A model generated the notes under the pieces. It saw only the letters and a list, made by a program, of their open reading frames with translations, ran no database searches and was not told where the DNA came from. A stretch of 64,000 nt of DNA from Schmidtea polychroa. Taxonomy: Eukaryota. The position numbers were made by a program, and so were the translations under genes. The DNA is taken from positions 20,276,001 to 20,340,000 of the forward strand of contig CM097885.1 in assembly GCA_044892525.1 (NCBI GenBank). Reading direction: 5' to 3'. Positions within the stretch are counted from its first letter, which is position 1. Each line of letters starts with the position of its first letter. Positions 10,101 to 55,774 of the stretch are shown here, piece after piece.

Positions 10101-11703
10101 ACTTAAGAGAATCTAGTATATATATAACTTATATTAATAGTCCTAAGGTTTTTCTTATTGCTACTTCTTATTGTACTTGAAAGTCTATATTTTCCTTGGT
10201 TTTGATTTATGCTTTATGTTGAAATAATATTTATGCTTGCAAGTTATCCATGTGGCCTTGTTTTGGTTATGATGGAGAACAATTTTAATGTAGATCTATT
10301 TTGTGGATCACTATATCATATCTAGAGAAATTTATGCCTGTAAAATATCATTTCAACAACTTTTGAGTCGAATGAAAAGCACTTTTAGTGGAAAATTGTT
10401 TTTGTTATGAATCTATATATTGCAATTACATAACATTTGTCTTGACAATTTATCTTTTTATAGCTATTCAACTTAGTGTAGAATTATGTGAAGATGTTGC
10501 CCGAACTTATAAGTTATAGATATAATATTAGTAGTTTATAGATAAAGAGACTTTGTCAATATGTCTACGGGAATTTGCGCATACCAAGACCATTACGATA
10601 GAGAAATTTAGTTTGCATCAAAATAGGTTATTTTGTGGGCATCTATAGATATTAGTTCGCTTACCAGTGCGATTGAGATTATATTATCTTAGGTCCGACT
10701 CATCGCATAAACTTTAGGTTGCAGTATTCTTACAGGGAATAGTTCAGAATTTTTTAAGTCTTTAATTGCCTTAAAAATCTTTGCGCAGGGATCTCCCTGT
10801 TATTTTGAGTTAATTAGTTTCTTAGGTTCACCTCGACTTTATCGTTTGAGAGGGATTCGTTTAGAAATAACCAGCTACACTAACATGTTCTATTGTGTGA
10901 AATTTGAGTCAGGGGATATTCCCCGTTTATCAGTTCCTAATGTTGTGTGCAAAATAATATAATTTAAGTGTTAATTTAGATATGTAAGTTAACGAAAAGG
11001 TCAATTTAATTAAAATTTACCTACTTTCCCGACTACACTGAGTACGGTACGATAGGCCCTATTGTAATATGTATCCACAATTAGTTTCCCATAATTATTT
11101 CGTCCGCATAGTCCATGTGACTATGCCAACTACCAAGAAGGATTTATACGCCCTACTCATGGTTAAACACCAATAGTTCGTGGCGACCTCTGGTTAAGAT
11201 TATGTTTTTAGTGCATGTAGGGTCGAGGACCCGAAATCATTATGAACTGTGCATTCATAAATGATAAAGTGCATAGGTGCAGGGTTGGCTTGGATCTCGC
11301 TTCAAAATCATTGATAACCGACGATCTCATTCAAATCTATACCTCTATAATTAAATAAAAATAATGAAAACAAGGCTTCAATAATAATAATTTATAATTC
11401 ACAAATTTATAATTCAGAAAAATCAAAATCAAAAATTTGGCATAAGAGTAAGCATTAGCATTTTTTCCTTGAAAAGTGACGAAATGTGTTAGTTTATATA
11501 GCCTCTGTTTGACGTGTAAGTATACATGCGTGCATTGATGCAGTAAAACAAATTCAGATTATTTTAATTCTCAAACATTCGATTTTTAATTTTTATCGAT
11601 TTTGATGGCGATTTTTCAGTAAGGATTTTTGTTTTTATTTTTGGAATTTTGTTTTTGAATTATTTTTTATTAAATTTGCCTCCATGATGGATTTCAGCAT
11701 TTC

Positions 11704-13085
11704 AGTAGTATAATTGGAGCCCGCCCGGCCACATATACCCCCTCCCCCCCGGAAAAAATTTTTAGAACGATGCCACATATTTTTAGAACTATTACGTAAT
11801 CGATGCCTCATATTTTTAGAACTATTACATAATCGATGCCCCATATTTTTAGAACTATTACATAATTGATGCATCATATTTTTAGAACTAATACATAATC
11901 GATGCCTCGTATTTTTAGAACGATGCCACATATTATTCAAAATATTATTAGTGGCCTGGCGGGCTCATGGTTTTCGTTTGCCCAAAAGTTATCGTTCCCA
12001 TAATTCTACTTCATCGATCGATAGCTCATTTTAAAGCCCAGTGCAAGATCTATCTACTGATCTATAAATATTATTATCATCATTATTATTGGTATAGTTA
12101 TTAACAATTGATGACCACCATCTTTTCAAAGTTAAATTATTATTATTTTTCAAAATACTATTAATTGGCCCAGCGGGCTCACACTTTTTTCCATCCCAAT
12201 AATTAATGTTCCCGATAAACAGATTATATTGATCGATAGCTTATTTTAAAGCTCTGTGCAAGACCTTTCTAATGAGATATAGATTTCTATCATACGATGA
12301 CTCATCACATTTTTAGAACAAAGACAATGACTCATCATAATTTTAGAACGATGCCTAATATTTTTAGAACGATGCCACATATTTTTAGAACTACTACGTA
12401 ATCGATGCCTAATATTTTTAGAACGATGCCATATATTTTTAGAACTATTACATAATCGATGCCACATATTTTTAGAACGATGCCTAATATTTTTAGAACG
12501 ATGCCACATATTTTTAGAACTATTACGTAATCGATGCCTAATATTTTTAGAGCGATGCCTAATATTTTAGAATGATTACATCATATTTTTAGAATGATGC
12601 CTAATATTTTTAGAACGATGCCTCATATTTTTAGAATGATTACGTCATATTTTTAGAACGATGCCTCTTATTTTTAGAACTAATAATTTTGTTTTAATTA
12701 TCGATTACACAATAATTTAATTTTGTTTAAATCGTTGATTATATAATTTTGTTTAAATCATTGATTATATAAATTTTTTTAATTATCGAATACGTAATAA
12801 TATAATTTTGTTTAAATCGTTGATTATATATTATTTTTTTTTTAATTTTCAATATTTTCTTTTAAAATATTAACGCACCGTGGAAGTTGTTATTATTATA
12901 TACTCCGAGTTTATCCGACAAGATATTCTGTCCCCCTATGGGTACTGCTCACAAAGGTACTGCTCACCAGAGTACTACTCACACTCAACAAGTCACATAG
13001 GTACTGTTCACAAAGTTAGTACTAAAAATATTCAAGACAAAACTTTAACAAAGAAATTCTAAATATTATTCTTTAAATATACACT
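11704..13085 (+). repeat. Left terminal inverted repeat of element 1 with internal 21/33-bp tandem units (ATTTTTAGAACGATGCCACAT)
   Basis: Reverse complement of 25625-26892, matching from AGTAGT through CTTTAAATATACACT; differs by substitutions and repeat copy number. Confidence 0.96.
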
Positions 13086-13442
13086 AAAATTTATTAACAC
13101 ATTCACATTCATCATCTCCACAGTTCATAACATTTTCAACAACATGATCTATGCAATCCCTATATACGCACGGTTCAGTATCCGTAAATTCCTCCATAGG
13201 TTCATCAATTTCTTGAATGCTTTCCTCATCATCTTGAGTGTTTTCTTCATCTGTTTCATCAAATCCCGAATCTTCACTCTCTGCTACCCAGTCTATATTT
13301 AATGCGTTTGCAACAGATAATAAATCATCCATTTTCACACCAGATATTTCTGCTAATTTTTCCAATAAAAAGTTTATTATAAATTCTAAATATTAAATAA
13401 TTTGATAATTAACTAATCATATTAACCTTTTTCTGTAGTCAT
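13084..13442 (-). CDS. Small acidic, Cys-rich-tailed Polinton protein; exons 13442-13427 and 13385-13084
   Basis: ATG ACT ACA GAA AAA G|gt, 41-bp intron, ag|AA TTT joins in frame to the 93-aa TTG-started ORF; TATAAA on the minus strand ~35 bp upstream. Confidence 0.7.
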
Positions 13443-13545
13443 TATTAGTATTTTAAAACTATAGTATATATTTGTTTATAGAAAATATAGAATATAAGCG
13501 AAAACAAATATAACTAAATACATTTATTAAATACAACAACATTTA

Positions 13546-13965
13546 TTAAAATAACTGTGAAAGTCTAGCAGACATAATTTTCCAAATTGGAGAATACACA
13601 TCATTATTATCAACTTAATATCCTTGGATTGCAATTGTTATATACCAATTTTCGTTTTCTTTGAAACTGATTTCATCAAAGGAATCATAAAATTTTGCTG
13701 ATCGGTTGTTGAAAAATGCATTTTGATTGCATGATAGATTCGTATTCAACCTTTTGAAAATATCATCTATGGTTTTAATATCTAACATTGAAAGCGTGCC
13801 GGTTAAGAATTGAAATTGGGTAGGAATTAGCTTGATCGGTGACACCAATTTCATATTGATTTCTTCTTTTAAAAAATACATTTTATAGTTGTGGAACATT
13901 TGAACAGGTTGTACAAGTTCTGGAACTACTTTTGGTTTTTCTGTGCTTGAAATTTTCTTGGTCAT
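13546..13965 (-). pseudogene. Polinton accessory protein of unknown function with one internal in-frame stop
   Basis: 116-aa ATG-started ORF; the frame continues past TAA (13615-13617) as VDNNDVYSPIWKIMSARLSQLF*; TATA (~14000) and CCAAT (~14028) elements upstream. Confidence 0.6.
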
Positions 13966-14085
13966 TGTGAATTATGATTAAATTGAAATGGTGCAGGGTT
14001 TTTATACCTATGACTATTGTTTATCATCCAATCAGATTGCAGCATGTTTTTGTTTTAATTGAATTGATATTGCAATGATAAATAA

Positions 14086-14550
14086 TTAATTAAGTGATAA
14101 TAAAAAATCTAAAAATTCTTTTCCTTCAATTATTGATTTAATTTCAGATATGATATTATCAACTATACATTTGTAATCAATATTTTTTATTCCAAGAATT
14201 ACTATCTTACCACTAGCAAATATATTTACACACATAGGGTTATATTTTATATATCTCAAAGCTGGAAATAATTCTGGTTTATAAAAGCATGGTATTAATT
14301 TAGCTAATTTATTTAAATTACAAGAAAAAACTATATCAGAAGTTACGGTTATCGATTGTATTTCTAAATCATAAACATTATATTCACTAGCTTTGATTAT
14401 TTCATTACACCCCATAATTCTACATTTACCAGTTTTAAAATATATTATCGGATATTTATTACTTCTATTGATAAGTTGTTGTGGTTTCCCTATTGGAAAT
14501 ACCATTTTTGATACATCAGTTTTTGCCCTGTAATTTATATTTGAAAGCAT
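14086..14550 (-). CDS. TBP: TATA-box-binding-protein-like protein encoded inside the Polinton
   Basis: IQSITVTSDIVFSCNLNKLAK..FYKPELFPALRY..PMCVNIFASGKIVILGIK aligns with TBP repeat 2 (IQN.V.S.D..F.I.L..L, YEPELFPGL.Y, LIF.SGK.V.TGAK); SNINY and IIYFKTGKCRIMG resemble repeat 1. Intact 154-aa ATG ORF. Confidence 0.9.
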   Translation of the reverse strand: MLSNINYRAKTDVSKMVFPIGKPQQLINRSNKYPIIYFKTGKCRIMGCNEIIKASEYNVYDLEIQSITVTSDIVFSCNLNKLAKLIPCFYKPELFPALRYIKYNPMCVNIFASGKIVILGIKNIDYKCIVDNIISEIKSIIEGKEFLDFLLSLN

Positions 14551-14654
14551 TTTAATGAAATAATTATAAAAACTCTGATATATATAGGTATTTAAAAACA
14601 GAGTTCATTTAAATTAACAATATAAACAATAATTATATTGTTTAAATTTAAAAA

Positions 14655-15293
14655 ATGGAATTACGAAATGATGCAGTATACCAAATCGTTGGTCCAAGTG
14701 GTAGCGGGAAAACTTTATTTGTTTGTAAATTACTAAAATCAAATTTGTTTAAAACAAAATTCAACAATATTTATTGGCATAGGGGCGCCGACGAAGAACA
14801 TGGATTGACGCAATCAAGTTTCTGTCAGTTGAAAAACATGAAAATAGTAAATGGTTTTGAGAAAAACTGGTCAAGTCGTTTGAAGAAAGATGATGTCATC
14901 ATTATCGATGATTTGTATCAAGAAACCAATAAAGAAAAGGATTTTAATAATTTATTCACAAAAATCACCAGACATGTTGGTGTAACAGTTATTTTAATAA
15001 CACAAAATCTATTTCATCAAGGTGGTGCACATCGAACACGTAATTTAAATGTACAATATTTAGTTATTTTCAAGAATCCTAGAGATGCAACTGTCATTGA
15101 TTTTCTTGGACGACAAGCATACCCTAATAACCGTAATTTTCTTATCAATGCATTTCAAGATGCTACAAAAATACAGCATGGGTATATATTTCTCGATTTC
15201 ACACAACAATGTCCTGATGATATACGCGTAAAAACAGATATTTTCAATCCAAAAGGTGCCATGGTATATAAACAAAGTTCAAAACAAAGTTGA
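14655..15293 (+). CDS. A32/FtsK-like genome-packaging ATPase
   Basis: Walker A GPSGSGKT, Walker B IIIDD, LFTK..RH, ITQNLF, FKNPRD, typical of Polinton ATPases. Confidence 0.96.
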   Translation: MELRNDAVYQIVGPSGSGKTLFVCKLLKSNLFKTKFNNIYWHRGADEEHGLTQSSFCQLKNMKIVNGFEKNWSSRLKKDDVIIIDDLYQETNKEKDFNNLFTKITRHVGVTVILITQNLFHQGGAHRTRNLNVQYLVIFKNPRDATVIDFLGRQAYPNNRNFLINAFQDATKIQHGYIFLDFTQQCPDDIRVKTDIFNPKGAMVYKQSSKQS

Positions 15294-15306
15294 AAACATA
15301 TAAATC

Positions 15307-15801
15307 ATGTTTTCAAAAACAAGGATATCGGGTAAAAAACAACCAAAGGTTCCACCAACAACTAGTTATACTCCATCTAAAGAACTTATTACAGAAAATT
15401 TTCCTGCAATGAATCTTATTTCGAAAAATCCTAAACCTAAACCTAAAAGTAAAAATACTAAGAAAGTAAAAGTTGTTAAAAATCATCGGAGTTTCCCGTT
15501 TTTCAATACATTGTTAAAGGCACCAAGTATGAAAAGAAACAGTATTTTGCAATCATTTCCAAATTATGTTGTCGATGATTTACTCGATATTATACTTAAA
15601 GTAGTCAAAGGCAAGATTAAAATCAGTAAATCCAAAAAGCAGTTATTGAGTAAACATAGGAAACCTTTGCTATCATTAGTAAATAATAAAAATCGTCAAC
15701 AAATGAGAAAAATTATATATAAACAACAAGGGGGATTTATCGGTGCATTGATACCTTTAGCAATATCATTATTAGGTGGAATAATAGGAAGTCGAACATA
15801 A
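15307..15801 (+). CDS. Basic virion core-like protein with C-terminal QQGG|F amphipathic peptide
   Basis: Lys-rich 164-aa ORF ending QQGGFIGALIPLAISLLGGIIG; sits between ATPase and integrase as in other Polintons. Confidence 0.8.
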   Translation: MFSKTRISGKKQPKVPPTTSYTPSKELITENFPAMNLISKNPKPKPKSKNTKKVKVVKNHRSFPFFNTLLKAPSMKRNSILQSFPNYVVDDLLDIILKVVKGKIKISKSKKQLLSKHRKPLLSLVNNKNRQQMRKIIYKQQGGFIGALIPLAISLLGGIIGSRT

Positions 15802-15804
15802 ACA

Positions 15805-16032
15805 ATGGGTGCTAATCCTTCATTACCAGACATTAAATTTAATATTAAATCTTCTTGCTGTAATGGAGAAGATTTGGACGAACCCGGAAGACGAAGCCGG
15901 TTTTGGTGGAGTGGCAAAATTAAGGAAAAGAGTTCTGAATTCGAAAAAGGAAACCCAGAAGTGGTTATCAGACCAGCTTGCGTACAGTTTGAACAAACCA
16001 ATGCAGAAACGATTCCCAACAAGAGCATATAA
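15805..16032 (+). CDS. Candidate 75-aa overprinted ORF (MGxxxS myristoylation motif, SSCC)
   Basis: ATG 3 nt after the upstream stop in AACAATGG context; overlaps the integrase 5' end in another frame. Confidence 0.5.
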   Translation: MGANPSLPDIKFNIKSSCCNGEDLDEPGRRSRFWWSGKIKEKSSEFEKGNPEVVIRPACVQFEQTNAETIPNKSI

Positions 16033-16918
16033 AACATATGGAATAAATGATTTATGGCAAATGGATTTGATGGAGATGATACCCTATTCGAAAATTAACA
16101 ATGGGTATAAATATATTTTAACATGTATTGATGTATTCAGTCGGTTTGCCCGAGCAATACCCGTCAAGGCAAAATCTGCAGATGAAATGTCCAAAGCTGT
16201 TAATCATTTATTTAAAGATGGACATCCTAAAAACTTGCAAACTGATTTAGGTAATAATATTATTATTTTTATTATTATTATTATTATTTTAGGTAAAGAA
16301 TTCTACAACAGTAAAGTCAAGCAAATCCTCAATAAATTGAAAATAAACCATTACTCGGTACATTCTCAATACAAAGCTGCTCATGTTGAAAGATTTAACC
16401 GAACTTTGAGAGATAGATTAAAGAAATTATTTGTGCATCAAGGTAATAAAAAATGGGTATTGGTTTTACCAAAAATAATAACCAGTTATAATCATTCATC
16501 ACATCAAGGACTGAATGGATTAAGGCCGATTGATATCACGTCAAAAACAATCTATTCTACAAAACCTGTAAAAATTACAAAACCGAAATATAAAGTAGGT
16601 GACCATGTTAGAATTAGTAAAATTAGTTCATCACCATTTATTAAAAATTTCGATACGAATTGGAGTGATGAAGTCTTTGTAATTTCAAAAATAAATACTA
16701 AACAGAATCCTGTAATGTATGTCATCAAAGACAATGATAACAATATTGTACAAGGAAAGTTTTATGAGCAAGAATTACAAGTTATTCCTCCCCCAAAAGT
16801 ATTTAGAATTCAGAAGATATTGAAAACTAAAAAGGTCGGCAAGGATAAACAATACTATGTCAAATGGCATGGTTATCAAAACCCATCATGGATATCAGAA
16901 AAGGATCTAGTAAAGTGA
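15863..16918 (+). CDS. Retroviral-like (rve/c-INT) integrase with C-terminal chromodomain; 42-bp intron 16251-16292
   Basis: WQMDL, IDVFSRFA, TDLG^KEF, VERFNRTL DDE motifs; YYVKWHGY..SWI chromodomain; probable ATG at 15863 (MEKIW..GFGG). Confidence 0.97.
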   Translation: MEKIWTNPEDEAGFGGVAKLRKRVLNSKKETQKWLSDQLAYSLNKPMQKRFPTRAYKTYGINDLWQMDLMEMIPYSKINNGYKYILTCIDVFSRFARAIPVKAKSADEMSKAVNHLFKDGHPKNLQTDLGNNIIIFIIIIIILGKEFYNSKVKQILNKLKINHYSVHSQYKAAHVERFNRTLRDRLKKLFVHQGNKKWVLVLPKIITSYNHSSHQGLNGLRPIDITSKTIYSTKPVKITKPKYKVGDHVRISKISSSPFIKNFDTNWSDEVFVISKINTKQNPVMYVIKDNDNNIVQGKFYEQELQVIPPPKVFRIQKILKTKKVGKDKQYYVKWHGYQNPSWISEKDLVK

Positions 16919-17931
16919 ATTTTTATACTATTTTACCAAGCAATAGTTGCCCATTAATTCATCCAGATAATCAAGCCAGTAAATTCATGGTCAATCTCCA
17001 GAATCCGATTTCTTTAAATGGTGACTGGGAAGTTGCACTGCAAGATTTTACATTCGTGTACAATACATTCCCATTTTATAGTCAATGTAAGATTGATTTC
17101 AAAAGGAATGTTCTGAAAACATGTAGTGGTATCTTTATTATCAGTAATTATGATAAAACATATCATATTCCGAATCAAATATTAGATCCGCATTGCTCTA
17201 TGTTTTACAAGGATGGATTAAATATCAGTTGTGATTTTAAACCATTTACAATAACATTCGAATATATTGAAGATGCCAGACGAATGGGTTGCAACAAGTT
17301 GAAAAATGAAGTTATGGAAACAGAATATTTATTACGCTTTGATCTATTTGAAGCAAACAGTGTAATGAGAGAAGAAATCAAAATATCAGTGTCGTATAAT
17401 AATGAAGTTGAAGAATCATTCACCTTTGCTGAGGAATTATATATTGATAAACTTGATGTGTTACTTAAATATTTAAAGTACAATTGTTCACACATATTTA
17501 AAAGTTTGGACATTGTGAAAGATTTGTTATTTACATTTAGTTTGAATGATGACATTTGCGAAGTTACATTTGATAAAAATTTGACAAATACACTTGGATT
17601 AGAGAAGCATCAATATCGGGAAAAATCTGCTGGTATACGGAAACCAAGAATACTTGAACATCATCAACAAATGTTCATATATACTAATATTATTGAGTCT
17701 ATAATAGTTGGTGATTCCAGTGTTCCTCTATTGAAATCGGTGTGGATTGGAAAATACGAACATGATGAAGTTGTCAATATAAATATAGATAATCCCATGT
17801 ATTTACCAATTTCAAGCTCATGTATAAACAATATAGAAATAAATATTCGTGACGATAGTGGAAAACTTATAAACTTCCCAAAAGACTCAAAAACTCATTT
17901 GACACTACATTTTCGCAAAGTAGATGGCTAA
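16864..17931 (+). CDS. Minor capsid (penton-like, PX) protein
   Basis: FYTILPSNS..PDN..SKF..NL.NPI.L.GDWEVAL N-terminus and FIYTNII..IVGD..VPLL..PMYLP..IEINIRDD.G..LHFR C-terminus; start could be 16888. Confidence 0.88.
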   Translation: MAWLSKPIMDIRKGSSKVNFYTILPSNSCPLIHPDNQASKFMVNLQNPISLNGDWEVALQDFTFVYNTFPFYSQCKIDFKRNVLKTCSGIFIISNYDKTYHIPNQILDPHCSMFYKDGLNISCDFKPFTITFEYIEDARRMGCNKLKNEVMETEYLLRFDLFEANSVMREEIKISVSYNNEVEESFTFAEELYIDKLDVLLKYLKYNCSHIFKSLDIVKDLLFTFSLNDDICEVTFDKNLTNTLGLEKHQYREKSAGIRKPRILEHHQQMFIYTNIIESIIVGDSSVPLLKSVWIGKYEHDEVVNINIDNPMYLPISSSCINNIEINIRDDSGKLINFPKDSKTHLTLHFRKVDG

Positions 17932-18286
17932 TTCCGATATTATTAGTATGTATAGTGATAGCCAATCTGGCGGTGAATTACCATATTTTATTGGTAAACA
18001 GTACGGATCAGGTTGGTTAAAAACAATAGGGAGATTTGCACTTCCTATTCTTAAACGTATTGGTAGTTTTGGCATGAAAACTGCTAAAGATGTGATTATG
18101 AATGAGCAGAAAATATTACCATCCCTAAAAACAAATGCTTTAGCTGAGTTAGGGAAGGTTCTACCTGGAGTTGCAGGTATGTTTCAAAAAGATACGCCTC
18201 CAGCCCCAGCTCCAAAACGTAAAGGACATGGAATATCGCGTATAAACAAACGAATGAAGGGACATGGAACTATATTTGCAAAATGA
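17924..18286 (+). CDS. Conserved small Polinton core/membrane-active protein
   Basis: QSGG.LPYF.GKQYGSGW...GRFALPILK glycine motifs plus amphipathic helix and basic tail, directly before the major capsid gene. Confidence 0.8.
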   Translation: MANSDIISMYSDSQSGGELPYFIGKQYGSGWLKTIGRFALPILKRIGSFGMKTAKDVIMNEQKILPSLKTNALAELGKVLPGVAGMFQKDTPPAPAPKRKGHGISRINKRMKGHGTIFAK

Positions 18287-19461
18287 TTTGTGGTAAATTC
18301 GAATTATGTATATTTGATAGACCATCGCCACAGGCTGTAATAGAATTTGGGGCCTTTGAGGAAGTTTTTCCTATGAATTCAATTACTGATAGTAGAAATG
18401 ATATCGAGTTTTATATTAATGGTTCGCAAACTGAATATTTAGATTTGAACGATACTTTATTGACTGTTCAGATCAAGGTTGTAGATAAAGATAGAAAGGT
18501 TTTGGATGCCAATGCTGATGTATTACCAAACAATTTCCTGTTTCATACTCTGTTTAAAGATGCAGTGTTGGGATTTAATAATATTAAGATCGAGGGCGGA
18601 AATAATACATTCATTCACAAAATTACCTGTCTTACACCTATGGGTTATGCAGCAGCAGATGATGAAAGAAAAAAGTGGGTTAAAGGCTCAAAATCATTCA
18701 CTATGTGCTCATCATTACAACTTGATTTTATGGATCAACCGAAATATTTGCTACCAGGAGTTAATGTACACATTAGATTGAAAAGATCCGATTCTGCATT
18801 ATCTCTTACTAGTGCAATTGGTGCACCAATATGCCAATTAGTTGATGCAAAATTATTGGTGAGAAGAGTGCGAGTAGACCCGTCAGTATTAGCTGGTCAT
18901 CAATTGGGTCTTAATTCAAAACATGCAATTTATCCATTAAAAACAAAGGAAATTGTATAATTTGCTATTGCTAAAGGTGCTTCATTCTATAAAGAACAAA
19001 TATTTGGTGACAGAAGAATGCCTAATTTTATTCTGGTAACATTTCAAAGTGAAACGCAATATAATGGATCTTATACTGCTTCGAGCTCAATTTTCAAAAA
19101 TTTTGGTGTTACTTCATTGACTTTGTCGAAAAATACTGATTATAGAGAAACATATACTCAAGATTTCGAAAGCGATAATTACTGTGCGACATATATGCAG
19201 AGTATTGTTAGAAATCTGGGTTACTTAGATAAAAACTTGAATTGTGGAATTAATCTAGAAGAATTTAAAAGCAAATATCCATTTTTCACATTTGTTTTAG
19301 CCCCTGATTTTGATTTAAATCAGAGTCAACTACCACAAAACGGGAATTTACGACTGGATATAAAGTTTGCAAAGGCCATTACTGAACCAGTACATGTTAT
19401 AATATATGGGGTATTTGAAAATGAAATTCAAATTACTGCAAATCGAACCGTGCTAGTATAA
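18283..19461 (+). pseudogene. Major capsid protein (double jelly-roll, PY) interrupted by in-frame TAA at 18958-18960
   Basis: IEFYING..EYLDLNDT.L, LHTLF-like, QPKYLLPGV..IRLKR, G.LRLDIKF, IIYG.FEN.I.I...R.V motifs; the 225-aa and 147-aa ORFs share one frame, joined by FAIAKGASFYKEQIFGDRR. Confidence 0.92.
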
Positions 19462-19542
19462 ATGTATACAGAAATATAAAAAGTTGTCATGGAGTAAGTT
19501 TTTTTTTGATACTGTTTAATTTATTAAAGTAGTTCTGTTCAG

Positions 19543-19875
19543 GTCAATAGAATTGGAAAACAGATATTGGGAAATGAATTTGTAGGAGTTTTTCCTCTTG
19601 ATAAAATTCCGTATTTGAGCAATAATCAAGCCATAATCGTCAATACTCAATCTTCTCATCTTGGTGGAGAACATTGGATTGCTATATATATGAAACCTAG
19701 TAATATATTCGTGTTCGATCCTATGGGTTTCTATTACCCTGCTTTGTTGGTATCAAAACTACAAACAATGGGGAAACCTATTGTATATAATAAAACAATG
19801 TTTCAAAATCCATTGACACAAACATGCGGTCAACATTGTTTAGCTTGGTTGTTGTATAAAAAATTTGATGTTTAA
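19543..19875 (+). CDS. Adenain-like (Ulp1/C5) maturation cysteine protease, main exon; upstream intron 19494-19542, first exon appears frameshifted
   Basis: FVGVFP.D, IVNT, GEHWIA, FDPMG, FQ...TQTCGQHC give the His-Asp-Cys catalytic set. Confidence 0.93.
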   Translation, partial: VNRIGKQILGNEFVGVFPLDKIPYLSNNQAIIVNTQSSHLGGEHWIAIYMKPSNIFVFDPMGFYYPALLVSKLQTMGKPIVYNKTMFQNPLTQTCGQHCLAWLLYKKFDV

Positions 19876-19897
19876 TAAATGTATCCTTTCCTTTGTT

Positions 19898-19923
19898 GTT
19901 ATTATTATTTTAATTATTATTAT

Positions 19924-19954
<31 letters not shown>

Positions 19955-20058
19955 ATTATTATTATTATTATTAATATTATTATTATTATTATTATTAATA
20001 TTATTATTATTATTAATATTATTATTATTATTAATATTATTATTATTATTATTATTAA

Positions 20059-20125
<67 letters not shown>

Positions 20126-20165
20126 ATTATTATTATTATTATTAATATTATTAATATTATTATTT
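19898..20165. repeat. (ATT)n microsatellite inside element 1
   Basis: Long ATT run with periodic AAT variants. Confidence 0.97.
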
Positions 20166-20277
20166 TTAATTAAATTTATTTTGAAAAATATTATTATCCA
20201 AATAAAGACAACACAATCATTGTGCATGCACAAAGTCATGACTAACAAAGATAGTCAGTCCCATGAAGTAGATACCA

Positions 20278-20365
20278 TTTGATTGGCTGATAGAGGAAAA
20301 ATATTCAGGAATGTGTCTAAATTCTGATTGGTTGAGACATGGAAATATTCCTGATCTATATAAAC
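20278..20365 (+). promoter_or_regulatory. Putative Pol II promoter of the pPolB gene (two inverted CCAAT boxes plus TATA)
   Basis: GATTGG at 20281 and 20326, TATATAAA at 20357-20364, ATG at 20431. Confidence 0.6.
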
Positions 20366-20430
20366 ATTGACAAATCTAAAATTTGTCACAATTATTCTTA
20401 AATTTACAAATAACGAAATTTTAAATTAAA

Positions 20431-21266
20431 ATGGACGCAGATTTACACAATATTTTGAATGCCATGTTGATGGGTGAAAATGGTAAATTATTTAGTTATT
20501 ATTATTATTATTTATTATTATTTTTGAGAATTTATGGTTTCAAGTGACCGAAGATAATTCAATTTTGAATGTTGATAGGATTTTCGGTAAATTTAAATAT
20601 TTTAATTTTTATGAAATTATTATTTTATTTAGAACCTATTATAATTAGCGACGACGATGATGTCGTTTTTATTGGACAAAATGATGCCCCTGATAAAGAT
20701 GCCTTATTTGTTGGGCAAAACAATGTTTTCAATAAACAAAGTAAATTTATTTTATTTAGTATATTATTTTTTAAAAATCATTTTAGTGTTTAATGTTGAC
20801 ATGGATGCAGATACCACAATTAATAATGATGAGGAAAACAATATGGAAAATGCCCTCACTTTTATTGAGGAGGTAGCTGATGAGGAATCTGATTCCGACC
20901 AGGAATCACAATGTAAGCATTTATTTATTTTTATATTTCTTTAACAAAATTTTTAAAATTTTCTTAATCGCTTTTTTAAACAGTTGCATAAATCTTATTC
21001 GTAAAATTATTATGTTTTTTTTGAATTATTATTATTGTAATTATGACGAAATTATGAAGAAAATACTATGATGGAAATTATAAAGAAATTACTATGATGA
21101 AAATTATGAAAATGAAGAAAATACTATGATGAAACTATTATAACGAAAATGAAGAAAATTATGAAATTATTATTTTGAAATTATGCAAATGTTTAAAAAA
21201 AGTGATTAAGAAACTATAGTTTTAAAATATTCCTTGTAGTTTGCAATGAGGAACTACATTAGTTAA

Positions 21267-21333
<67 letters not shown>

Positions 21334-21746
21334 TTAATGATAATAATAATAATGATAATAATATATCTTGTAGTCTGCAGTGAGCATGCAGCTACATATC
21401 TCTTTTATTATGATTGCTCCAATAAATGTAGTCTGCAGTCAGCATGCAGCTGCATCAAACTATTTATTTATTAGGTAATAATTACCCTTTATTAAATGTA
21501 GTCTGCAGTGAGCATGCAGCTGCATCAAACTATTTATTTATTAGGTAATAATTACCCTTTATTAAATGTAGTCTGCAGTGAGCATGCAGCTGCATCAAAC
21601 TATTTATTTATTAGGTAATAATTACCCTTTATTAAATGTAGTCTGCATCGAGCATGCAGCTACATCAAACTATTTATTTATTAGGTAATAATTACCCTTT
21701 ATTAAATGTAGTCTGCAGTCAGCATGCAGCTGCATCAATAATAATG

Positions 21747-21800
<54 letters not shown>

Positions 21801-24800
21801 TCCCACATTTATAGTTTACAAGACTTTATTAATATTTTACAATTATTAATATTTATTTCATTTTCATAATGTATTTAAATGAAACATATATCAATAATTG
21901 TAAAATCCTTATAAGAACTAAATGATAATTGCGTAAAAGAAATATAAATGTTATATAAATACAATTTCATGACTAATATTAATTGATAAATATAATTAAC
22001 AGGCGAATTTTATCCACATTACTGCCAGGCTTCAACTGGTCACTCAAAATTATGTCACAAAGTGATGAAAAAATATTATGGTCGTAAATTTTATGGTATC
22101 AAGTACTATATATGCCCAATATGCGAGACTTCCCATAGCATTAAATATTTAGAGTTTTACAGTATACATAGATCCCATTTAAATCAGTTCTCTTTAAATA
22201 AAAAGGATTTATTTAACAAACTGCGAAATACCTCAAAACCTGTAATTAAAACTACTGTAAATAATACAAAACCTGTAAATAATATTACAAAACCTGTAAA
22301 TAATATTACAAAACATGTAATTAAAACTAATGTAAATAATACAAAACCTGTAAATAATATTACAAAACCTATAATTAATAATGTTATTAATGTAAATAAT
22401 AATTTAAAAAGACCTGCTGTTAGTATTGGGTCTGATGCTCCCTCTAAAATAAATAAATTAGATCAAATAACTGTCAATGATGTGGTTAATAATATTCAAG
22501 TAGGCGGTTCAGTCGATATTGACGATGAACCTGAAATCGAAATTGATTTTAAGGGGGTTCGAAAGAATCTAAGATTTAATGTAGAGAAGGATAACATCAT
22601 TCAAATAACCATAACCGATAAAATCGTTAATAAGTTAAATCATGAAATAAACAGAATGGGGTCGGTGAAAATACAATTCTCCGTATTGATTCAATTTGAA
22701 AAAGATGGTGAAATTAAAGATAATTTCTTCTCGAATAGGGCAGAGGCTTTTTCAGATAGTTTTCTAAGTGAGGGGGTTCACAAATTAAATAATAAAATAG
22801 AAAAATTCACATATTTGGGTAGTGGATGGCGGGTTGTTAAAATCAAAGAAATAGATTTTATATTAACAAAATTTACACATATGAATAGGCTAGCTGGACA
22901 TAGTTATATCCCCACCCCATCATCTTTAAAATCTAAAAATGCAATAGTAAACGTTAAAAACACTGATGATATGTGCTTTATATATAGTATTTTAGCACTT
23001 TTAAAACGTAATGTAGTACATAGTCATAGGTACCGTGTTAGTTCCTATGAAAATTATCTTGACGAGTTAAATTTTGACCCCATTTCCGACTGTCCAATGA
23101 AATTATGTGATATTCCTAAATTCGAGATGAAAAATAAGGATTTAAATTTAGCAATAAATGTTTTAACTTATAGAACGACATCAGCTAAGCTTTTTGAAAA
23201 TATAGTTGACGATAATTATATTCCACATCATCCCAAATTGGATATAATTCACCGATCTAAGGTTATAGGTGGTGAACCCTTATACTTACTTTTATTGGAA
23301 GATGGTGATAATTTTCATTACACCGCAGTTTTTAACTTACAAAAATTAATGAATTGTCACTCTAGCAGTGAATGCGGCGTTAGACTTCAAGTAAACTGGT
23401 GTCCCCATTGTCTTAACGGATTTAGACATAAAAATGCATTTGATATTCATGTCGCCTTATGCATTAAAAACCAGATAGGAACAATTCTATACACGTTACC
23501 CAAATTTAATTTTTCAAAATTATGCGAAAACCATCACCCCGCCATTCGTGTTATATGCAGACTTTGAATCAATTTTACCGGGGGATATAATACACCATCA
23601 AAAGCATTTGCCAATAACAGCAGGTTTATTATTAATAAATAATTATAATAACTCTAAATTTTATTATGAGTTTGTTGGGGATGATTGCATCTTATCTTTC
23701 TTGCGTAAGGTGGAGGAAATTGCTATGACAAAAAGCCCATGCAAACCTTGTCTTTCGCTGAAGAGCGGGCCTCTCGTGATTCCAGAACCTGCTACCTTTG
23801 TAAAAGATTTATTAGAAATAGAGTTAGGGATCATTGTCACTTTTCAGGTAAGTATCTTGGTGCTGCCTGTAGGAAATGTAATGTTTCTCGACGAATTCTG
23901 AAACAGTTACCTGTGGTTTTTCATAATTTGAGGGGGTATGATCTTCATCATATTTTGAAGTATGGTTTGAAGAATTTTCCTTCTTGGGAATTAAATATTA
24001 TTCCGACCACTACCGAGAAATTCATCTCCCTCATCGTTTATATTAAAAAATTGTCTGTTCGTTTTATTGGCAGCATGCAGTTTGTTAATTCATCTTTAGC
24101 AAAAGCGGTTAAGACTCTTTCCGATCTGCCTTTAACTTCTTCGGTTTTCGATGGCGCAATTGTTCGAGCCAAAGGTATCTTTCCTTATGACTTTGCAACA
24201 TCTCTTGAGGTTCTGGAATCGACTCTTGAATTGCCTCCTATCTGGGATTCTGTGTCTAATGATGAATATGCATTAGCCCAAGTAATTTGGACTCAGCAAA
24301 ACTGCAATAACATGTTAGATTACATGTTAACTTACCTTAAATTAGATGTTTAATTTCTATGAAGGAGGGATACGGGGTGGGTTAACATTTGTTAACAAAC
24401 ATTATGTTGCAAGTTCTGAAGACACAGAACTCTTGTATATTGATATTAAAAACCTTAAAAAACGGATGAATTTGAGGCTATGCAATTCAGCTGAAAAGAT
24501 GATTGTATATGCTTCAAAGCCGACTTTCAAGAAATCTATCAAAATTGATGATGACTTGATTGCTGCACATCTCAATAAGGATTCTATATGTTTAGACAGG
24601 CCTAGTTACATTGGCCAAACGGTGCTAGACCTGTCTAAACTGAGGATGTACCAGTTACAGTATATACTATATAGAATTGGCTAAATATAGAAATGAATTT
24701 AAATGTGAAATAAATATCGTTGCCGGCGATACTGACTCCTTTTTTCTTGAGGTTAGGCACTGTAAGCTTGACATTCTTTTGCCGGCAATGGTTCGTGACA

Positions 24801-25372
24801 ATCTTTTAGACACTTCAAACTATGACCTTGCACATCCCTTATACTCTAGAAACCTTGATTCTGTGATAGGTAAATTTAAAGATGAAAGTAAAGGTCTAGG
24901 GTATAAGGAATGGGTTTTCTTAAGACCCAAGTGCTATAGTTTGTTAGGGGCTAAAAATCATTTAAAAGCAAAAGGAGTCAGGTTAATAGGTACAGAAATT
25001 AGGCACGATTCATATTTAGAATGCTACAATAACAACGTAGTATTTTCTGTGCCACAAAGTAGGATAGGGACGCGGAACCATCAATTGTACACATTTAAAA
25101 ACAATAAAATCGCGTTGTCAAACAACGACGACAAGCGGTTTTGGGTGGGGAAAAATCCCAGTCTCGCATTTGGTCATTATTTAGCACTAGATGACATAAA
25201 TGATGATCAAATATTTGAAGAAGTTGGGCCACTATTCGGAGGATTAAGTCCAGATTTTGTTTCTGTTGATGAGGAAGTGGGTCCACTTTTCAATGGTTTA
25301 AGTCCAGATTTCGATTCTGGGGATGATCCTAATGATGAAATAGATATAGATGATATTTTATTGTCAGACTAA
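20431..25372 (+). pseudogene. Protein-primed family B DNA polymerase (pPolB) with spliced acidic leader; frameshifted and internally deleted
   Basis: Leader exons 20431-20482, 20545-20586, 20633-20740, 20787-20912 splice in phase to 22003. Motifs GSGW, SYIPTP, N.DD.CF, YADFES (ExoI), RDHCH..GKY.GAAC..CN, FHNL.GYD (ExoII), KGIFPY, YLKLDV, IRGG, YID (motif A), GDTDS (motif C), GKFKDE, KAKGV are spread over five ORFs; motif B is absent. Confidence 0.93.
21423..21737. repeat. 70-bp tandem repeat (~4.5 copies) with a hairpin per unit, in pPolB intron 4
   Basis: ATTACCCTTT recurs at 21481, 21551, 21621, 21691; unit contains TGTAGTCTGCAGTGAGCATGCAGCTGCA. Confidence 0.95.
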
Positions 25373-25624
25373 ACTGTGATAAATGTTAATATATCTTTTT
25401 ATTTTGAAAACGTTTCTTCTACATTGTTGTATTATCTAAAATCTTTTATTGAAAACTCGTTATAGTTTTCACAATTCTTACAATTGTTAAACACTTGTAT
25501 AAATATATTTATTAATATTGATAAAGTTTTTATAAATCATGTTTAACTATTGAAAGAATTTGGTAGAATTTTTTTTTTTTTGAAATGTATGTTGTAGTGA
25601 GCACACCACTACATATATGAGTTG

Positions 25625-26892
25625 AGTGTATATTTAAAGTATAATATTTAGAATTTCTTTGTTAAAGTTTTGTCTTGAATAGTTTTACCAGTAACTTTGT
25701 GAACAATACCCATGTGACTTGTTGAGTGTGAGCAGTACCCTGGTGAGCAGTACCCATAGGGGACAGAATATCTTGTCGGATAAACTCGGAGTATATAATA
25801 ATAACAACTTCCACGGTGCGTTAATATTTTAAAAGAAAATATTGAAAATTAAAAAAAAATAATATATAATCAACGATTTAAACAAAATTATATTATTACG
25901 TATTCGATAATTAAAACAAAAAATTATATAATCAATTATTTAAACAAAATTATATAATCAACGATTTAAACAAAATTAAATTATTGTGTAATCGATAATT
26001 AAAACAAAATTATTAGTTCTAAAAATAAGAGGCATCGTTCTAAAAATATGACGTAATCATTCTAAAAATATGAGGCATCGTTCTAAAAATATTAGGCATC
26101 GTTCTAAAAGTATGACGTAATCATTCTAAAAATATTAGGTATCGTTCTAAAAATATGTGCCATCGATTATGTAATAGTTCTAAAAATATATGGCATTGTT
26201 CTAAAAATATGAGGCATCGATTACGTAGTAGTTCTAAAAATATGTGGCATCGTTCTAAAAATATTAGGCATCGTTCTAAAAATATGATGAGTCATTGTCT
26301 TTGTTCTAAAAATGTGATGAGTCATCGTATGATAGAAATCTATATCTCATTTGAAAGGTCTTGCACAGAGCTTTAAAATAAGCTATCGATCAATATAATC
26401 TGTTGGCGGGAACATTAATTATTGGGATGGAAAAAAAGTGTGAGCCCGCTGGGCCAATTAATAATATTTTGAAAAATAATAATAATTTAACTTTGAAAAG
26501 ATGGTGGTCATCAATTGTTAATAACTATACCAATAATAATGATGATAATAATATTTATAGATCAGTAGATAGATCTTGCACTGGGCTTTAAAATGAGTTA
26601 TCGATCGATGAAGTAGAGTGATGGGAACGATAACTTTTTGGCAAACGAAAACCATGAGCCCGCCAGGCCACTAATAATATTTTGAATAATATGTGGCATC
26701 GTTCTAAAAATATGAGGCATCGATTATGTAATAGTTCTAAAAATATGAGGCATCGATTATATAATAGTTCTAAAAATATGGGGCATCGATTATGTAATAG
26801 TTCTAAAAATATGTGGCATCGTTCTAAAATTTTTTTTTCCGAGGGGGAGGGGGGGGGGTATATATGGCCGGGCGGGCTCCAATCATACTACT
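25625..26892 (-). repeat. Right terminal inverted repeat of element 1
   Basis: Reverse complement of 11704-13085. Confidence 0.96.
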
Positions 26893-28629
26893 CATTTCCA
26901 GAATATTTCATGCTAAATTTAATCTATTTCTTATTTTTAAATTGTTTTTTATGATTTCTTTTCTAAAATCTTTATTTTTTAAACTAAAATATTTATTTTT
27001 TATAAATTTTATTGGGTCGTTTGGCGGTCATGATGGATTTCGCCATTTTTATGAATTGTTCTGGATTTTTATTCAAAATATCGATATAATTTTCTTTACG
27101 TAAGATTTTATGAAGATTTTCTTTAATTTTCTTTTTTATTAATTTTTACTAATCGCCTTTATTTGAATTTGTTTTTTTGTTGTTTTATGTCTTTCGGTTA
27201 TATTTGAGTAAGTTTTCGTGTAATACTTCTTGCTCGTGTTTTATTTTATTTTTAATTCAGATGTTTTATTTTTGGGTATATTATCTCTTTATTATCATTG
27301 TTTACTTGGTTTTTTTATATATTTTTATTTAAGTAAACTTAATGCTGTGTATGCGTGTTGTGTACTGACACATTTCGTCCCATTCCTAACTTTGGGTTCA
27401 GAAATCAGTTCTAGCCCAACAAATGTAATGATTTCTTTGATAATCCTTTTCTTTGCATGTCATCTCTAGAGTAAGCATTATACCAAGATATCCTAAAGTT
27501 CTGCATAGAGTTAAGGTAGACACAGTAATGGCTTTACAGAAAGTCAGCCCAATACTGAAAGTTGAAAGGGACGTGGTTTTATTCCAATCAAAGGAACACA
27601 GTAAAGAAGCTTATATTGTAGTTTAAAATACTTTCAATGCAAGCAAATTCGAAAGTCTAAAGCATAAAAGAACATTATACAAATGAGGAAAAATGTCGAT
27701 GGCTATTCCGTAATGGCAATTACGTAATTTCCTCAAATATTTATCTATTTTTTCTATTTTCCGTTGTTTATTGTAATTTATTTACATAAAATTTTCAGAA
27801 AGGCAAATTTATTTTTATTTGTTAGAATGTGCACTTTACAATGCATTGTTTTATTTGCTAAGTTGTTGCATTTTGTTCATTTTCATCTCTATATTTTTTG
27901 GTGATACTGAGTATGAAATCAAGTTCAAACGTCTTGAACATTCATATGAATAAAGATAAATTTGATTAAATAAAAGTAAAGTCAGCATTGTTTTTGGCCT
28001 AACACTTTGCATTAATTGATGTTGAAGAATTATTAATTAAGATTTGGTGTTGCACATGGATACATTAGTAGGTAGATAGTGGCCCCCCGCAGCAATGACA
28101 CCCCCCCCCTGCGGCAACTTTTTTTTGCGGCGACTTTTTGATTACGCAATTTTTTCAGACTATAGTGAGGGGGTCTCGATGGTCTTGGGATTTTCAATAC
28201 AAAAATTTTTTTCAATACAAAAACGATGGTCCTGGGATTTTCAATACAAAAAATTTTTTTCAATACAAAAATCCAATACAAAAAAAAAATTAAATTACAG
28301 TAAATTATGAGCTAAGATTTTAAAATTAAGTAATCATTGGTAAAAAATTTAAATAAGTAAATTAAAGTAATAATTTTTAAATAAGTAATGTAATAATAAA
28401 ATTAAAGTAAGATTTTAAAATTTATTAACAAATAATAGAAGGCGTTTGAGAATTGAAATTTTTTAATGAAAATTTTTATGAAATAATTTTTTAAGTAATT
28501 TTTAATAGAAATTTTAATGAAATATTTTTTAAAATAATTTTTAATGGAAATTTTTATGAAATAATTTTTTAAGTTAATTTTTAATGGAAATTTTTATGAA
28601 ATATTTTTCAAAGACAAATTTTAATAATA

Positions 28630-30819: not shown

Positions 30820-32199
30820 TAATAATAATTCAATAGTTCCCAACAATCGATTACTAAATATTTTTAACTAGGTGCTAACAAATAAGTACCAAATACTTAC
30901 AACTAGATACCATGTACTAACTAACTCTCAAACAACCAGATACTTACAACTAACTACTTACAATCAACTAAATATTCTTTATTGTATTTTATGAAATGCT
31001 TTTTTAAATTATTTTTTTTATACAGCTTCTATAATAATTTTAATTACAATCAGTAGAAAAACCTTTTCAAATTTAACAAAAATGTTGATTTTCATCAAAA
31101 AACCACAACTCAATCACTTTAAAACACCAAGTGAAATTCAAAATAATTTAAATTACAATGAAAGACTAATGAATTCTAATTTACAAAACATTCTTCTTTT
31201 AATTGATAACTACTGACTTATTATTGCAATGTAAAAAACGCATTCAATAAATACTTATTGTTGATCAGTTTTATTATATATACTCTGAGTTTATCCGACA
31301 GGATGTTTTGACCCCCTAAGGGTACTGGTCGTAAGGGTACTGGTCGTAAAGGTATTAGTTGTAGGGGTACTGGTCGTAAGGATATTGCTAACTCTCAACC
31401 CCCACTTACCCATTAACCACCTAACAAGTACTAACAACCAGCTAGCAACTAAATACTAAACACTAACAACCACCATCAACCAGGTACTAAGCATTATCAA
31501 CCTACAACTATATAACAACAATCAGTAAACAACATTGTACCAACAACCAAATACAAGATACCAACAACTTAGTACCAACAATCAACTAACAACACATAAA
31601 AATAATAGCAATTAAATACAAAATATTCTTCATCACATACACTATCTTCTTATCAAAATCTAAAAATGTCAACCAACTACTTACAACCAGCAACTATGTA
31701 CTAACAAATTGATCTTTAAAAGCGAATACTCATCACTTGGCAAATTGGATGAAAAATTAATTGTTAATAACTTGATAAAAATTGATTAAATAATTGTAAA
31801 AATTTAAATTATTCAAAATAAATATCATAAAAATGTAATTAATGGACAAGAAAGAATTCTAGTCATCAAGTAAATAAAAGAAAAATACTGATCATTCAAG
31901 TTGAATCAACTAAGAGAATAAATTAATAAAAAGTTTGAAATAAGATCTAATAAATAATTGATTTAGATTGAATAAATTTTAATTATTTTTTTAAAGTAAT
32001 ACATGTACTCAAATTGATTGACTGATTGCTCAATATATTCAAAAAAAACAGTATAAATTCATTACAATTATCAAAGTCATCAATCTACAATAAAATTAAT
32101 TATCATTAAATTCCAAAAGAGACTGATAACTAATGATAACATCTAACAAACCAGTAAATTCATTTAAATGACAATAATTGGTATATCCAAGTGAATTCT

Positions 32200-32720: not shown

Positions 32721-35527
32721 ATAAAACAGGTAAAATAAATTGGTCATTAACCCTAAATAATTTATAAAATATAATGATAAAAGCAGTTATAATTAAATTT
32801 TTATTCTAAAAATAAATCACTCTATTTGAAATTTACAATAATTAATACTGTATAATATAACTGACTAGGTCCCATTGAAAGATTAAATTTATCCATTCAA
32901 TAAAATATATTTCTTCAAATGATCATTTTTACCGATATTCAACCGATTTAATTACTAATTAAAATCACCCGATAGATTTCTTTCAATAAAGATCAATTTT
33001 ATTTAGTTGTTGTCGATGTTTTAAGTCCATATTTTTCAACTTTTGTCATTCTCCGTCTAAATAAAGATAAAAATAAATTAAAGTTGATATCAATCCCAAT
33101 TATCTGTAAAGTTTTCATTGGAAAAACCAAGTAAATCGATCATTATCTCTACTTAATAAACCATAAATCTAAATTAACATACAATGGATTAATCACAACC
33201 TAATAAAACGATATAATTATTATTGATTCATAACTGACTAATTGCAATTTCCCTTAAAACATTGATATTTGACCAACATTACCCATGTAAATATTCAAAA
33301 GATTCCCATCGAAACCCTTCCCTCATTAAAAGCAACCGACTATATCTTTCTTAAAATGAAATATTCCCATATTAACCGATTATATCCCATCTTAACCGAT
33401 CTCTCATTAAATCTAACCGACAATATCCCATCTTAACCGATCTCTCAGCAAATATTTCTACACTATTAAACATCTATCTGATTATATCCCTTATTTTCCC
33501 TAAAGATTTCACCCACTTGAGCTCTTTAATATATATCAATCCTCTTAAAATCCTCAGAGAACTTCAAAAATATGACTTTTAATTAATTTTTATAGAACCA
33601 GACAAATAATAAGAGCCCACTAACCAATCAAAATCATGGAAGGGCAGGGAAAAATATATTACGTTGCGATATTTTAAAATTAAAATTTATTTTAAAAACA
33701 CATTTTGACGCTAAAGTCGACTTATGTAACAAAGATATAATAAACTCATTATTTTCTACAAATATTTACCATCAAATACTGGAGATGATATATATTGTTT
33801 GATCATAATTCTTCAGCTATTCAACCAATCATTTTCAAGCAATAACAGCAAACTAAATTTCTGTATATCCTACAATAATTATCAAGTAAATTTAAAGTCC
33901 CTGATAAAGTTAACTGGTTTCTTAGCTTATGTTTTTTAAAGTTCATCAATGTGTCAATATTCTTAGAAAATTATTGAAAAAATTATTTATTCAAATATAT
34001 TACAAAGTCATCAAAAATTTATTCTATCACTTAATTATTAACCTAATTGTCAATGAAATTAATTTTTATTTAAAAACTATTCAATAAAATACAACTAATT
34101 ATCAAGAAATTAATTAAATTTATCAATTAAATTTATCAGTCAACATGAAATTCTTAGAAAATTATTCAATATCCTCATCAAAATTTATCCTATCACTTGA
34201 TTATTGTAAAAACTCTAATTATTAACCTCATTGAAAATAATTTTTATTTAAAATTTAAAAACAAGTCAATAAAAATACATCCAATTATCAAGAAATTAAT
34301 TAAATTTATTTTAGAAATAGCATTAAATTTTTAAATATTCTTTCAATCAACATGAAATTCACAAGAATGATAAAAATCCACAAAAATCGATAAAAATTCA
34401 CAAAAAAGATAGATATCCACAAAAATTACAGATATTCACAAAATATAACGGAAATTCATGAAAATAATAGAAATTCACGAAAATGTTAGAAATTCATAAA
34501 AATGATAGAAATATACTTGAATATTTACTAAAACCATCAACTCTAAAAATTATCAATGAATGCCTTATACAAATTTGCCTAAATAATCATTCAAATAAAA
34601 GCATTAAATACCTTTACGACTAATACCCTTGCGACATGTTGAATGTGAGTAGTACCCTTGTGAGCAATACCCATAGGGGGACAGAATATTTTGTCGGATA
34701 AACTCAGAGTATATATTAATTAACTCATTTAAATTTATCATTGAATCAGTCAAATTATCATAAATTTCGATAAAAATTCTAAAGTGGTAAGCAATGAAAA
34801 GAGAAATATTCTTTAAACTTTGATAAAATTAAAAATGAAGGTGGTAAAAATCTTCATTAAAGTGAGGAAATTATTCATTACTCGATGATAAATTCAAATG
34901 GGTGAAAATAATTGGTAGAATAATTCATTAATGGATCATTGAATGGGCATAGATAAGAAGAAGGTTTATAAGAATGGAAATATATTAATTGAATTTATTT
35001 AAAATTATTTCATAAAATTCATAAATTTAATAAAAAAAAGAAATATTTGTGGGGAATAATTAATCAAAATCGGTGGAATATAATTGATTAAATATCGAGG
35101 GTGGGGGTTATAAGTGAATAATTAATGGAAAATCGGGAGGATATATAATTTGAGCTAGTTTATTACATAACAAGCCGTGACTATTTTATTACATAACAAG
35201 CCGTGACTATTTTATTACATAACAAGCTGTGAATGGTATTTTATTGAGAATTATTGATTAGGTCTTTTTTAAAATTTTTGAATAAGTACTTTAATACCTT
35301 AATAATTTAAATGTTTTGATTTACACTAAATAATTTCTAAATCTATTACCCTTTTCAATCAAAATAAGATCAATTATATACCTTTTTATAAAATTCAGTT
35401 AAAATTAAATACTTTCCACTAAATTTAAAATATATAAATTTTATAAGTTTTTCAAATTTTCAAATAATGTAAATAAGAAATTAATTTTCTTTTCACCAGT
35501 TATATACTTTTAAACTTATTGACGGAA

Positions 35528-50030: not shown

Positions 50031-50077
<47 letters not shown>

Positions 50078-55568: not shown

Positions 55569-55658
<90 letters not shown>

Positions 55659-55774
55659 TTATTTATTATTTATTATTTATTATTTATTATTATTTATTAT
55701 TGTTATTATTATTTTTTATTTTTTATTTTTTATAATTATTACTTATAATTATTTATTATTTATTATTACTATTA

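Follow-up and report, generated by a model that had tools for sequence, protein, structure and literature searches.

The genes of intact vertebrate Mavericks showed no introns, which accords with Kapitonov and Jurka 2006, according to the accessible part of the vertebrate study (PMC8097293). The core genes of nematode Mavericks are called intronless in the available portion of Widen et al. (10.1101/2022.07.12.499685), with introns confined to captured host cargo, and the dinoflagellate maverick-polinton-like viruses carry, in the accessible sections of their description, young copies of mobile introner families that were mostly gained after integration (PMC11957031). Here a 64,000-nt stretch of the Schmidtea polychroa genome (contig CM097885.1, hereafter the window; all coordinates are positions in it) is described that contains a full-length Polinton/Maverick element of 15,189 bp (11704-26892). 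Seven GT..AG introns in four genes of this element had been proposed from the DNA letters. All seven stretches exist and six of them are in phase; the one in the protease gene is out of phase as drawn. The descriptive and non-defining Polinton trait of intronless core open reading frames (ORFs) does not hold here: the protease and integrase genes are both interrupted.

The reading preferred here, with a probability of roughly 0.8, is that the genes of this lineage pass through the host nucleus and host splicing, and that they carry introns of two ages. In the nucleus, host polymerase II would transcribe them and the major spliceosome would remove the introns. Judged from sequence, the lineage seems to depend on splicing by the host, and nuclear, host-dependent expression of its particle-building genes is argued for, which bears on the open questions of virion production by animal Polintons and of the site of their transcription. 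The original prediction put forward a long adaptation to the host spliceosome. This is supported for the protease intron, where position, phase and donor are conserved and the interior is near shuffled identity, but not for the one in the integrase, which all homologs covering its site lack and whose junction repeat is typical of a recent gain.

The window element resembles vertebrate Mavericks, as these appear in the accessible text, in its terminal inverted repeats (TIRs), 6-bp target site duplication (TSD), protein-primed DNA polymerase B, integrase, ATPase, protease and capsid genes, and in the decay of most copies (PMC8097293), but differs in having core-gene introns, one of them conserved across the lineage, and a TBP-like gene. 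With the nematode elements, as far as their available account extends, it shares the core gene set and the presence of intron-bearing genes within the element, whereas in the window element the protease and integrase themselves are split. The dinoflagellate viruses, in the sections available, are alike in bearing intron-like insertions in integrated Polinton-like elements; in contrast, the window protease intron is old and position-conserved, with no conserved interior, and the host genes are of animal type. No Polinton core gene with a spliceosomal intron at a conserved position was found in the accessible literature, subscription papers and Repbase exon annotations being outside its scope. 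No Polinton core-gene spliceosomal introns appear in the available parts of 10.1101/2023.08.22.554363, PMC8502044, PMC5718144, PMC10294476, PMC6431247, 10.64898/2026.10.13.758929, 10.1101/2024.01.15.575659, PMC11296320, PMC11244446 and PMC13465017, nor in that of PMC12220804, where only group I introns are described.

The protease intron

The protease gene lies on the plus strand and encodes an adenain-like cysteine protease (Pfam Peptidase_C5, E 8e-7). Its first exon (19489-19493) consists of the ATG and two bases, its second exon spans 19533-19875, and between them lies a 39-bp phase-2 intron (19494-19532, GTAAGTT..TAG). Without splicing the frame would end at codon 3, so that synthesis of the protease would require intron removal. 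The 49-bp version originally drawn (19494-19542) was rejected, since with acceptor 19542 the frame from ATG 19489 gives 15 non-protease codons. The corrected acceptor, 19532, restores the protease frame and places a Met two residues ahead of the aligned start, as in the database homologs P0122, P0124, P0133 and P0134. An alternative acceptor at 19529 (36 bp, AAG) is also in frame; the relatives agree with 19532. A start at ATG 19462 was rejected on account of an in-frame stop (19477-19479).

The relatives are 54 metagenome loci found with an integrase profile, of which 21 are at least 3 kb long and eight reach the protease. In seven of these eight an intron is present at the identical site (ATG-NN, GTAAGT, then AG), with a length of 39 bp in locus L006, 39 in L007/L049, 40 in L009, 37 in L015 and 47 in L017/L018; L033, the most distant of the eight, is without it. 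The seven loci represent five distinct elements, with proteases 47-60% identical to that of the window and 45-64% identical among themselves, and several of them have a full-length capsid ORF adjoining the protease. The donor GTAAGTT is invariant in six of six aligned sequences. Identity within the intron interior is 0.664 against 0.637 for shuffled sequence, the observed value being reached in 8 of 200 shuffles. The introns of 37, 40 and 47 bp have lengths that do not divide by three, and the unspliced frame ends at codon 3 in all eight intron-bearing sequences (the window and the seven loci). Over the 365,594 positions of the 54 loci, with both strands counted, the pattern ATG-NN-GTAAG-(25-45 nt)-AG occurs nine times, and seven of the nine occurrences are protease starts.

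What is found at this site, namely GT-AG ends, a restored frame, a conserved position with conserved splice sites and an interior free to vary, corresponds to a U2-type intron. By these alignments, the protease intron is old and inherited. Its conservation across elements 45-64% identical would point to long expression through the nuclear spliceosome under selection: protease synthesis would depend on splicing, with selection holding the splice sites while the interior drifts. The exact protease junction is available to assay.

The database entries are consistent with such an intron. Among 17 protease homologs, as read from their protein letters, five appear to begin with intron read-through, two to show the acceptor only and four to have an intronless start, and six are uninformative. 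The five with intron-like N-termini are P0121 (96% identical, implying an intron of 37 bp), P0125, P0126, P0128 and P0137, and in them annotation by ORFs alone is seen to misread these genes, the earlier expectation having been that it misses them. Public protein collections appear to hold miscalled protease N-termini, which undercuts any screening for intact elements by ORFs without introns. In P0131 and P0132, protease pieces 82-85% identical to that of the window are fused to unrelated tails, with a tubulin domain in P0132 and a tail in P0131 that we take to be histone-like; both entries are probably chimeric gene calls.

Two observations weigh against an old intron inherited throughout the group. 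In the protease tree, the group with all intron-bearing rows has support of 87/84, and it includes P0122 and P0124, which start without an intron; this implies that the intron was lost, that contigs derive from spliced RNA or that the tree is wrong. The five intron-bearing relatives may also share few samples or hosts and hence may not be fully independent.

Contigs from four sequencing runs (X8, X13, X2 and X15) were aligned to 13050-19880, an interval that holds three of the seven introns, the integrase intron being skipped as a repeat. Among the sequencing runs listed for this interval none is recorded as RNA, which counts neither for nor against splicing. Of the 312 joints, none of the 15 listed coincides with an intron; X8 and X13 are only guessed to be RNA. 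In both of these runs 30 of 30 bins are covered, intron letters are present and depth tracks the DNA run (Spearman 0.65 and 0.67), so they may be DNA. Of 12 indel rows listed (of 57), four fall within the protease intron; three of these are 1-nt changes, and three are also present in a run labelled organism B.

The integrase insert and intron gain

The integrase gene (15863-16918, plus strand) is of the retroviral type with a chromodomain (Pfam rve, E 4e-8; Chromo, E 3e-4, which is under its curated cut-off). Its catalytic motif QTDxGxEF is split by a 42-bp insert (16251-16292, plus strand), which has GT..AG ends and is in phase 1, as had been claimed. The motif is uninterrupted in 120 of 120 homologs (the best 120 of 2226 matches) and in 44 of the 54 loci; nine loci do not reach the site, and one, 30% identical, is without a motif match. 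Searches with a DNA pattern that represents an intron in this place gave no match in viral contigs and none in metagenome contigs. The insert has a 9-nt junction repeat whose 9-mer has no other occurrence in the element's 8451 coding bases and stands unsplit at the integrase site in five of the 44 relatives. By comparison with these homologs, the insert is a recent gain. That it is a working intron is considered likely, given a GTAA donor, a TTTTAG acceptor and a host-like length of 42 bp. The host yardstick proposed earlier (39-42 bp in AP3B1) holds, insofar as minus-strand introns of 42, 39 and 42 bp were measured at 3244-3285, 3130-3168 and 2992-3033, and the host exon between those introns matches AP-3 beta (E 4e-12).

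Introns are also seen in single relatives. The phosphatase gene of L009 contains a 46-bp frame-breaking GT-AG intron (873-918) with a 10-nt junction repeat, the TBP-like gene of L004 a private 40-bp GT-AG intron (376-415), and the small ORF of L015, a homolog of window 13615-13965, a private 43-bp GT-AG intron (1745-1787). The genes that match these three are intronless in the window element or in L020. From these private introns, intron gain appears to be ongoing in the lineage. In the available part of a study on Daphnia, new introns have a 4-12 bp direct repeat common to the intron and the adjacent exon, which is read as staggered-break repair (PMC4202315). The window integrase and L009 introns are alike in their short junction repeats, whereas the Daphnia cases, as presented there, concern host genes with population data and the window case is one copy with outgroups. 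The young introns, in the integrase and in several cases private to single relatives, would have arisen at exonic AG/GT sites; a staggered break or short duplication most likely copied such a site around AT-rich filler, and the copied site would have served as ready-made donor and acceptor. With old and young introns together, this fast-evolving element of high copy number lends itself as a natural system to the study of intron gain.

Several points count against a working integrase intron of recent origin: the insert is in frame, stop-free, 95% AT and a near-pure ATT repeat of microsatellite-like appearance, homolog searches are biased toward intronless genes, and the window copy is dead, so selection need not have acted on its private integrase insertion. 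The insert might instead be an unspliced insertion private to this copy or subfamily, with the other introns (that of the protease, perhaps more) being real, in which case 14 added hydrophobic residues beside the catalytic aspartate would disable the integrase. Absence from all homologs covering the site agrees with this, and a plain duplication leaves an equal junction repeat; the host-like length and splice signals, and the similar repeat-flanked but frame-breaking intron in L009, place it on the unlikely side.

The same composition invites a broader objection, that all seven stretches are AT-rich insertions with chance GT..AG words in a dead element and that there are no introns. Capsid and polymerase are indeed broken in the window copy, and a loose intron scan also picks GT..AG candidates in intergenic and repeat DNA. 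An invariant donor at one protease site in five distinct relatives, several with an intact-length capsid ORF beside it, and the concentration of pattern matches at protease starts make this account barely credible, chance being already refuted for the protease by conservation. Introners, copies of a mobile intron-generating element, have a precedent in the dinoflagellate Polinton-like viruses, as the accessible sections describe (PMC11957031), and the donor GTAAATT is common to all three short introns of the polymerase leader considered below. However, GTAAATT is also the donor of two of the three host AP-3 beta introns, the protease intron interiors are near shuffled identity, and none of the repeat families listed by the repeat scan is peculiar to these introns; an origin as introners is accordingly improbable. 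Splicing of lineage genes by the host, with introns of two ages, remains the preferred reading.

The acidic ORF and the polymerase leader

An acidic ORF with no function assigned lies on the minus strand. It is predicted to consist of a 16-base exon 1 with the ATG (13427-13442), a 41-bp phase-1 intron (13386-13426, GTTAAT..TTTAG) and exon 2 (13084-13385), the GT..AG ends and phase of the intron being as originally claimed. The only nearby ATG sits in exon 1. In five of five homologs (54-63% identity) the call begins at the LEKL motif and a Met is missing near the start, which is compatible with a missing first exon and is not proof of one. Sibling substitutions at 13393 and 13403 fall within the intron, which is quite likely real. 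A candidate intron at 13059-13098 was dropped as unneeded, because the homologs end there. For the acidic ORF and the leader exons, no tblastn homolog was found in the 21 loci of at least 3 kb, and a protein atlas search with the acidic ORF gave no usable match.

Upstream of the polymerase, on the plus strand, an acidic leader of four predicted exons (20431-20482, 20545-20586, 20633-20740 and 20787-20912) begins at ATG 20431. It is preceded by promoter-like words at 20282-20363, which are consensus matches only (inverted CCAAT boxes at 20282 and 20327; TATATAA at 20357). The three short introns between the exons, of 62 bp (20483-20544, with an AAG acceptor), 46 bp (20587-20632) and 46 bp (20741-20786), have GT..AG ends, are in phase 1 and keep one open frame, just as proposed, and each is quite likely real. 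A 46-bp version of the first, ending GAG at 20528, was rejected because it runs into a stop. In L015, the 5' end of the polymerase has three short phase-1 introns (45, 53 and 49 bp) that chain into the main ORF, at positions not homologous to those of the window leader. The 5' end of the polymerase region would also use phase-1 mini-exons.

The last claimed intron, of 1090 bp (20913-22002, plus strand), has the expected GT..AG ends and phase 1 and contains AAT runs and 70-bp tandem repeats, but the pairing of donor and acceptor is not fixed, a 71-bp alternative being available. The first ATG of the main polymerase ORF, at 22065, falls within a cysteine/histidine domain that is conserved, and the codon divided between 20912 and 22003 yields a residue conserved in homologs (27 of the 34 matches read) that the unspliced frame does not yield; acceptor 22002 is for these reasons probably used, as far as the letters indicate. 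The 1090-bp intron as drawn is held only tentatively, at somewhat short of even odds. The four acidic exons could equally form a separate small gene, with the polymerase starting at a separate short exon or an ATG close to 22002 and with no 1090-bp intron, an arrangement whose chance also falls a little below one half. With its long T tract, the acceptor at 20983 is the closer one, so that a 71-bp intron (20913-20983) would be followed by a stop that ends the leader; other phase-compatible donors lie at 21037-21950, among them donor 21900 with an in-frame ATG at 21869; and TATA-like words are present at 21943-21954. Counting likewise against a long leader, many polymerase N-terminal homologs, and L006, start with a Met a few residues before the first cysteine. 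A separate gene is harder to reconcile with the position of ATG 22065, which calls for an upstream exon, with the conserved residue from the split codon, with the donor word at 20913, which is the best, and with L015, in which acidic phase-1 exons are joined to the polymerase.

Seven of the polymerase N-terminal homologs (P0151, P0154, P0158, P0163, P0168, P0174 and P0175) end after the domain in GK, GN or SK followed by hydrophobic tails, which look like read-through of a phase-1 intron.

In adenovirus, the first codons of the E2B polymerase mRNA come from a short upstream exon, by long-range alternative splicing. The window element would be analogous in having a related protein-primed polymerase with an upstream first exon; it differs in that its introns are of host size, about 40 bp. 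By this analogy it may be speculated that the lineage uses splicing as a control layer, through the start-proximal protease intron and the choice of leader acceptor, an idea that is doubtful at present. Speculatively, the protease intron might gate capsid maturation or license the last gene of the capsid cluster, and the choice between acceptors 20983 and 22002 might determine, in an adenovirus-like manner, if a single promoter gives a small acidic protein or the full polymerase. If true, these would be nuclear, splicing-regulated viruses that make do without the cytoplasmic factory of a giant virus, in a clade misannotated by ORF-based surveys.

The element, its genes and the host locus

The element is bounded by a TIR pair of about 1.3 kb (left, 11704-13085, plus strand; right, 25625-26892, minus strand) that is 97% identical (1221 of 1257 aligned bases) and has ends AGTAGT/ACTACT, the AG..CT termini characteristic of Polinton/Mavericks. 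The 6-bp TSD CATTTC, also characteristic of these elements, stands on either side (11698-11703 and 26893-26898). Many variant contigs along 13050-19880 in the four sequencing runs place the element in a multi-copy family. Fragments 83-92% identical to the inner TIR, at 34609-34720 and 31267-31345, are short and may be relics of other copies or of derivatives that are non-coding.

Two genes on the minus strand are intronless in the window element: a conserved small ORF (13615-13965) and the TBP-like gene (14086-14550; Pfam PF00352, E 6e-13), homologs of which are present in L004, L005, L006, L015, L033 and L037. On the plus strand, a packaging ATPase (14655-15293; Pfam Pox_A32, E 1e-7) is followed by a conserved basic ORF with no function assigned (15307-15801), the integrase, a stop-to-stop ORF without a Pfam match (16849-17931), a conserved small ORF with no function assigned (17924-18286), the major capsid protein gene (18283-19461), the protease and the polymerase gene (22003-25372; Pfam DNA_pol_B_2, E 6e-8). 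By its position in the Polinton layout, the ORF at 16849-17931 is a putative gene for the minor capsid protein, a single jelly-roll protein in Polintons. Long ATT/AAT microsatellites at 19890-20180 and 21270-21800, and about five 70-bp tandem repeats, lie between the protease and the polymerase.

The window copy is dead, its capsid and polymerase genes being broken. An in-frame stop (18958-18960) interrupts the capsid gene, which also shows a gap of 14 codons against relatives. The polymerase gene is in five ORF pieces, and two blocks present in the intact relative L006, one of about 50 codons and one of about 150, are without a match. The intact capsid homolog in L007 is 53-56% identical to the two pieces of the window capsid. 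Its structural model (predicted local distance difference test score, pLDDT, 65) matches capsid chains of PBCV-1, iridovirus and mavirus (E 3e-14 to 4e-13), and it is thereby predicted to fold as a double jelly-roll; a capsid profile searched against PDB sequences gave no match. An Endonuclease VII-like zinc motif in the polymerase (23709-24353, plus strand; E 1e-4, under the curated cut-off) is also weakly present in the polymerases of L006 and L015.

Queries with three proteins found no relatives of the element among viral contigs. Host-like cargo recognized by Pfam in the relatives includes a ubiquitin-conjugating enzyme, a dual-specificity phosphatase, and TRAF-like and RING proteins, at 225-722 (minus strand) in L006, at 178-702, 1530-2729 and 2861-3325 in L020, and at 919-1260 in L009.

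Elsewhere in the window, decayed transposons lie at 742-996, 35531-36389 (minus strand) and 40809-41682 (minus strand), with a mariner-type helix-turn-helix and a Tc5/pogo-type transposase recognized by Pfam; one of them, which has no Pfam match, is by its motif a possible Merlin-like transposase. A ROCK-like host kinase gene (PDB match, E 1e-63) occupies 44441-61526 on the plus strand, and some of its short introns appear by eye to have GTT donors.

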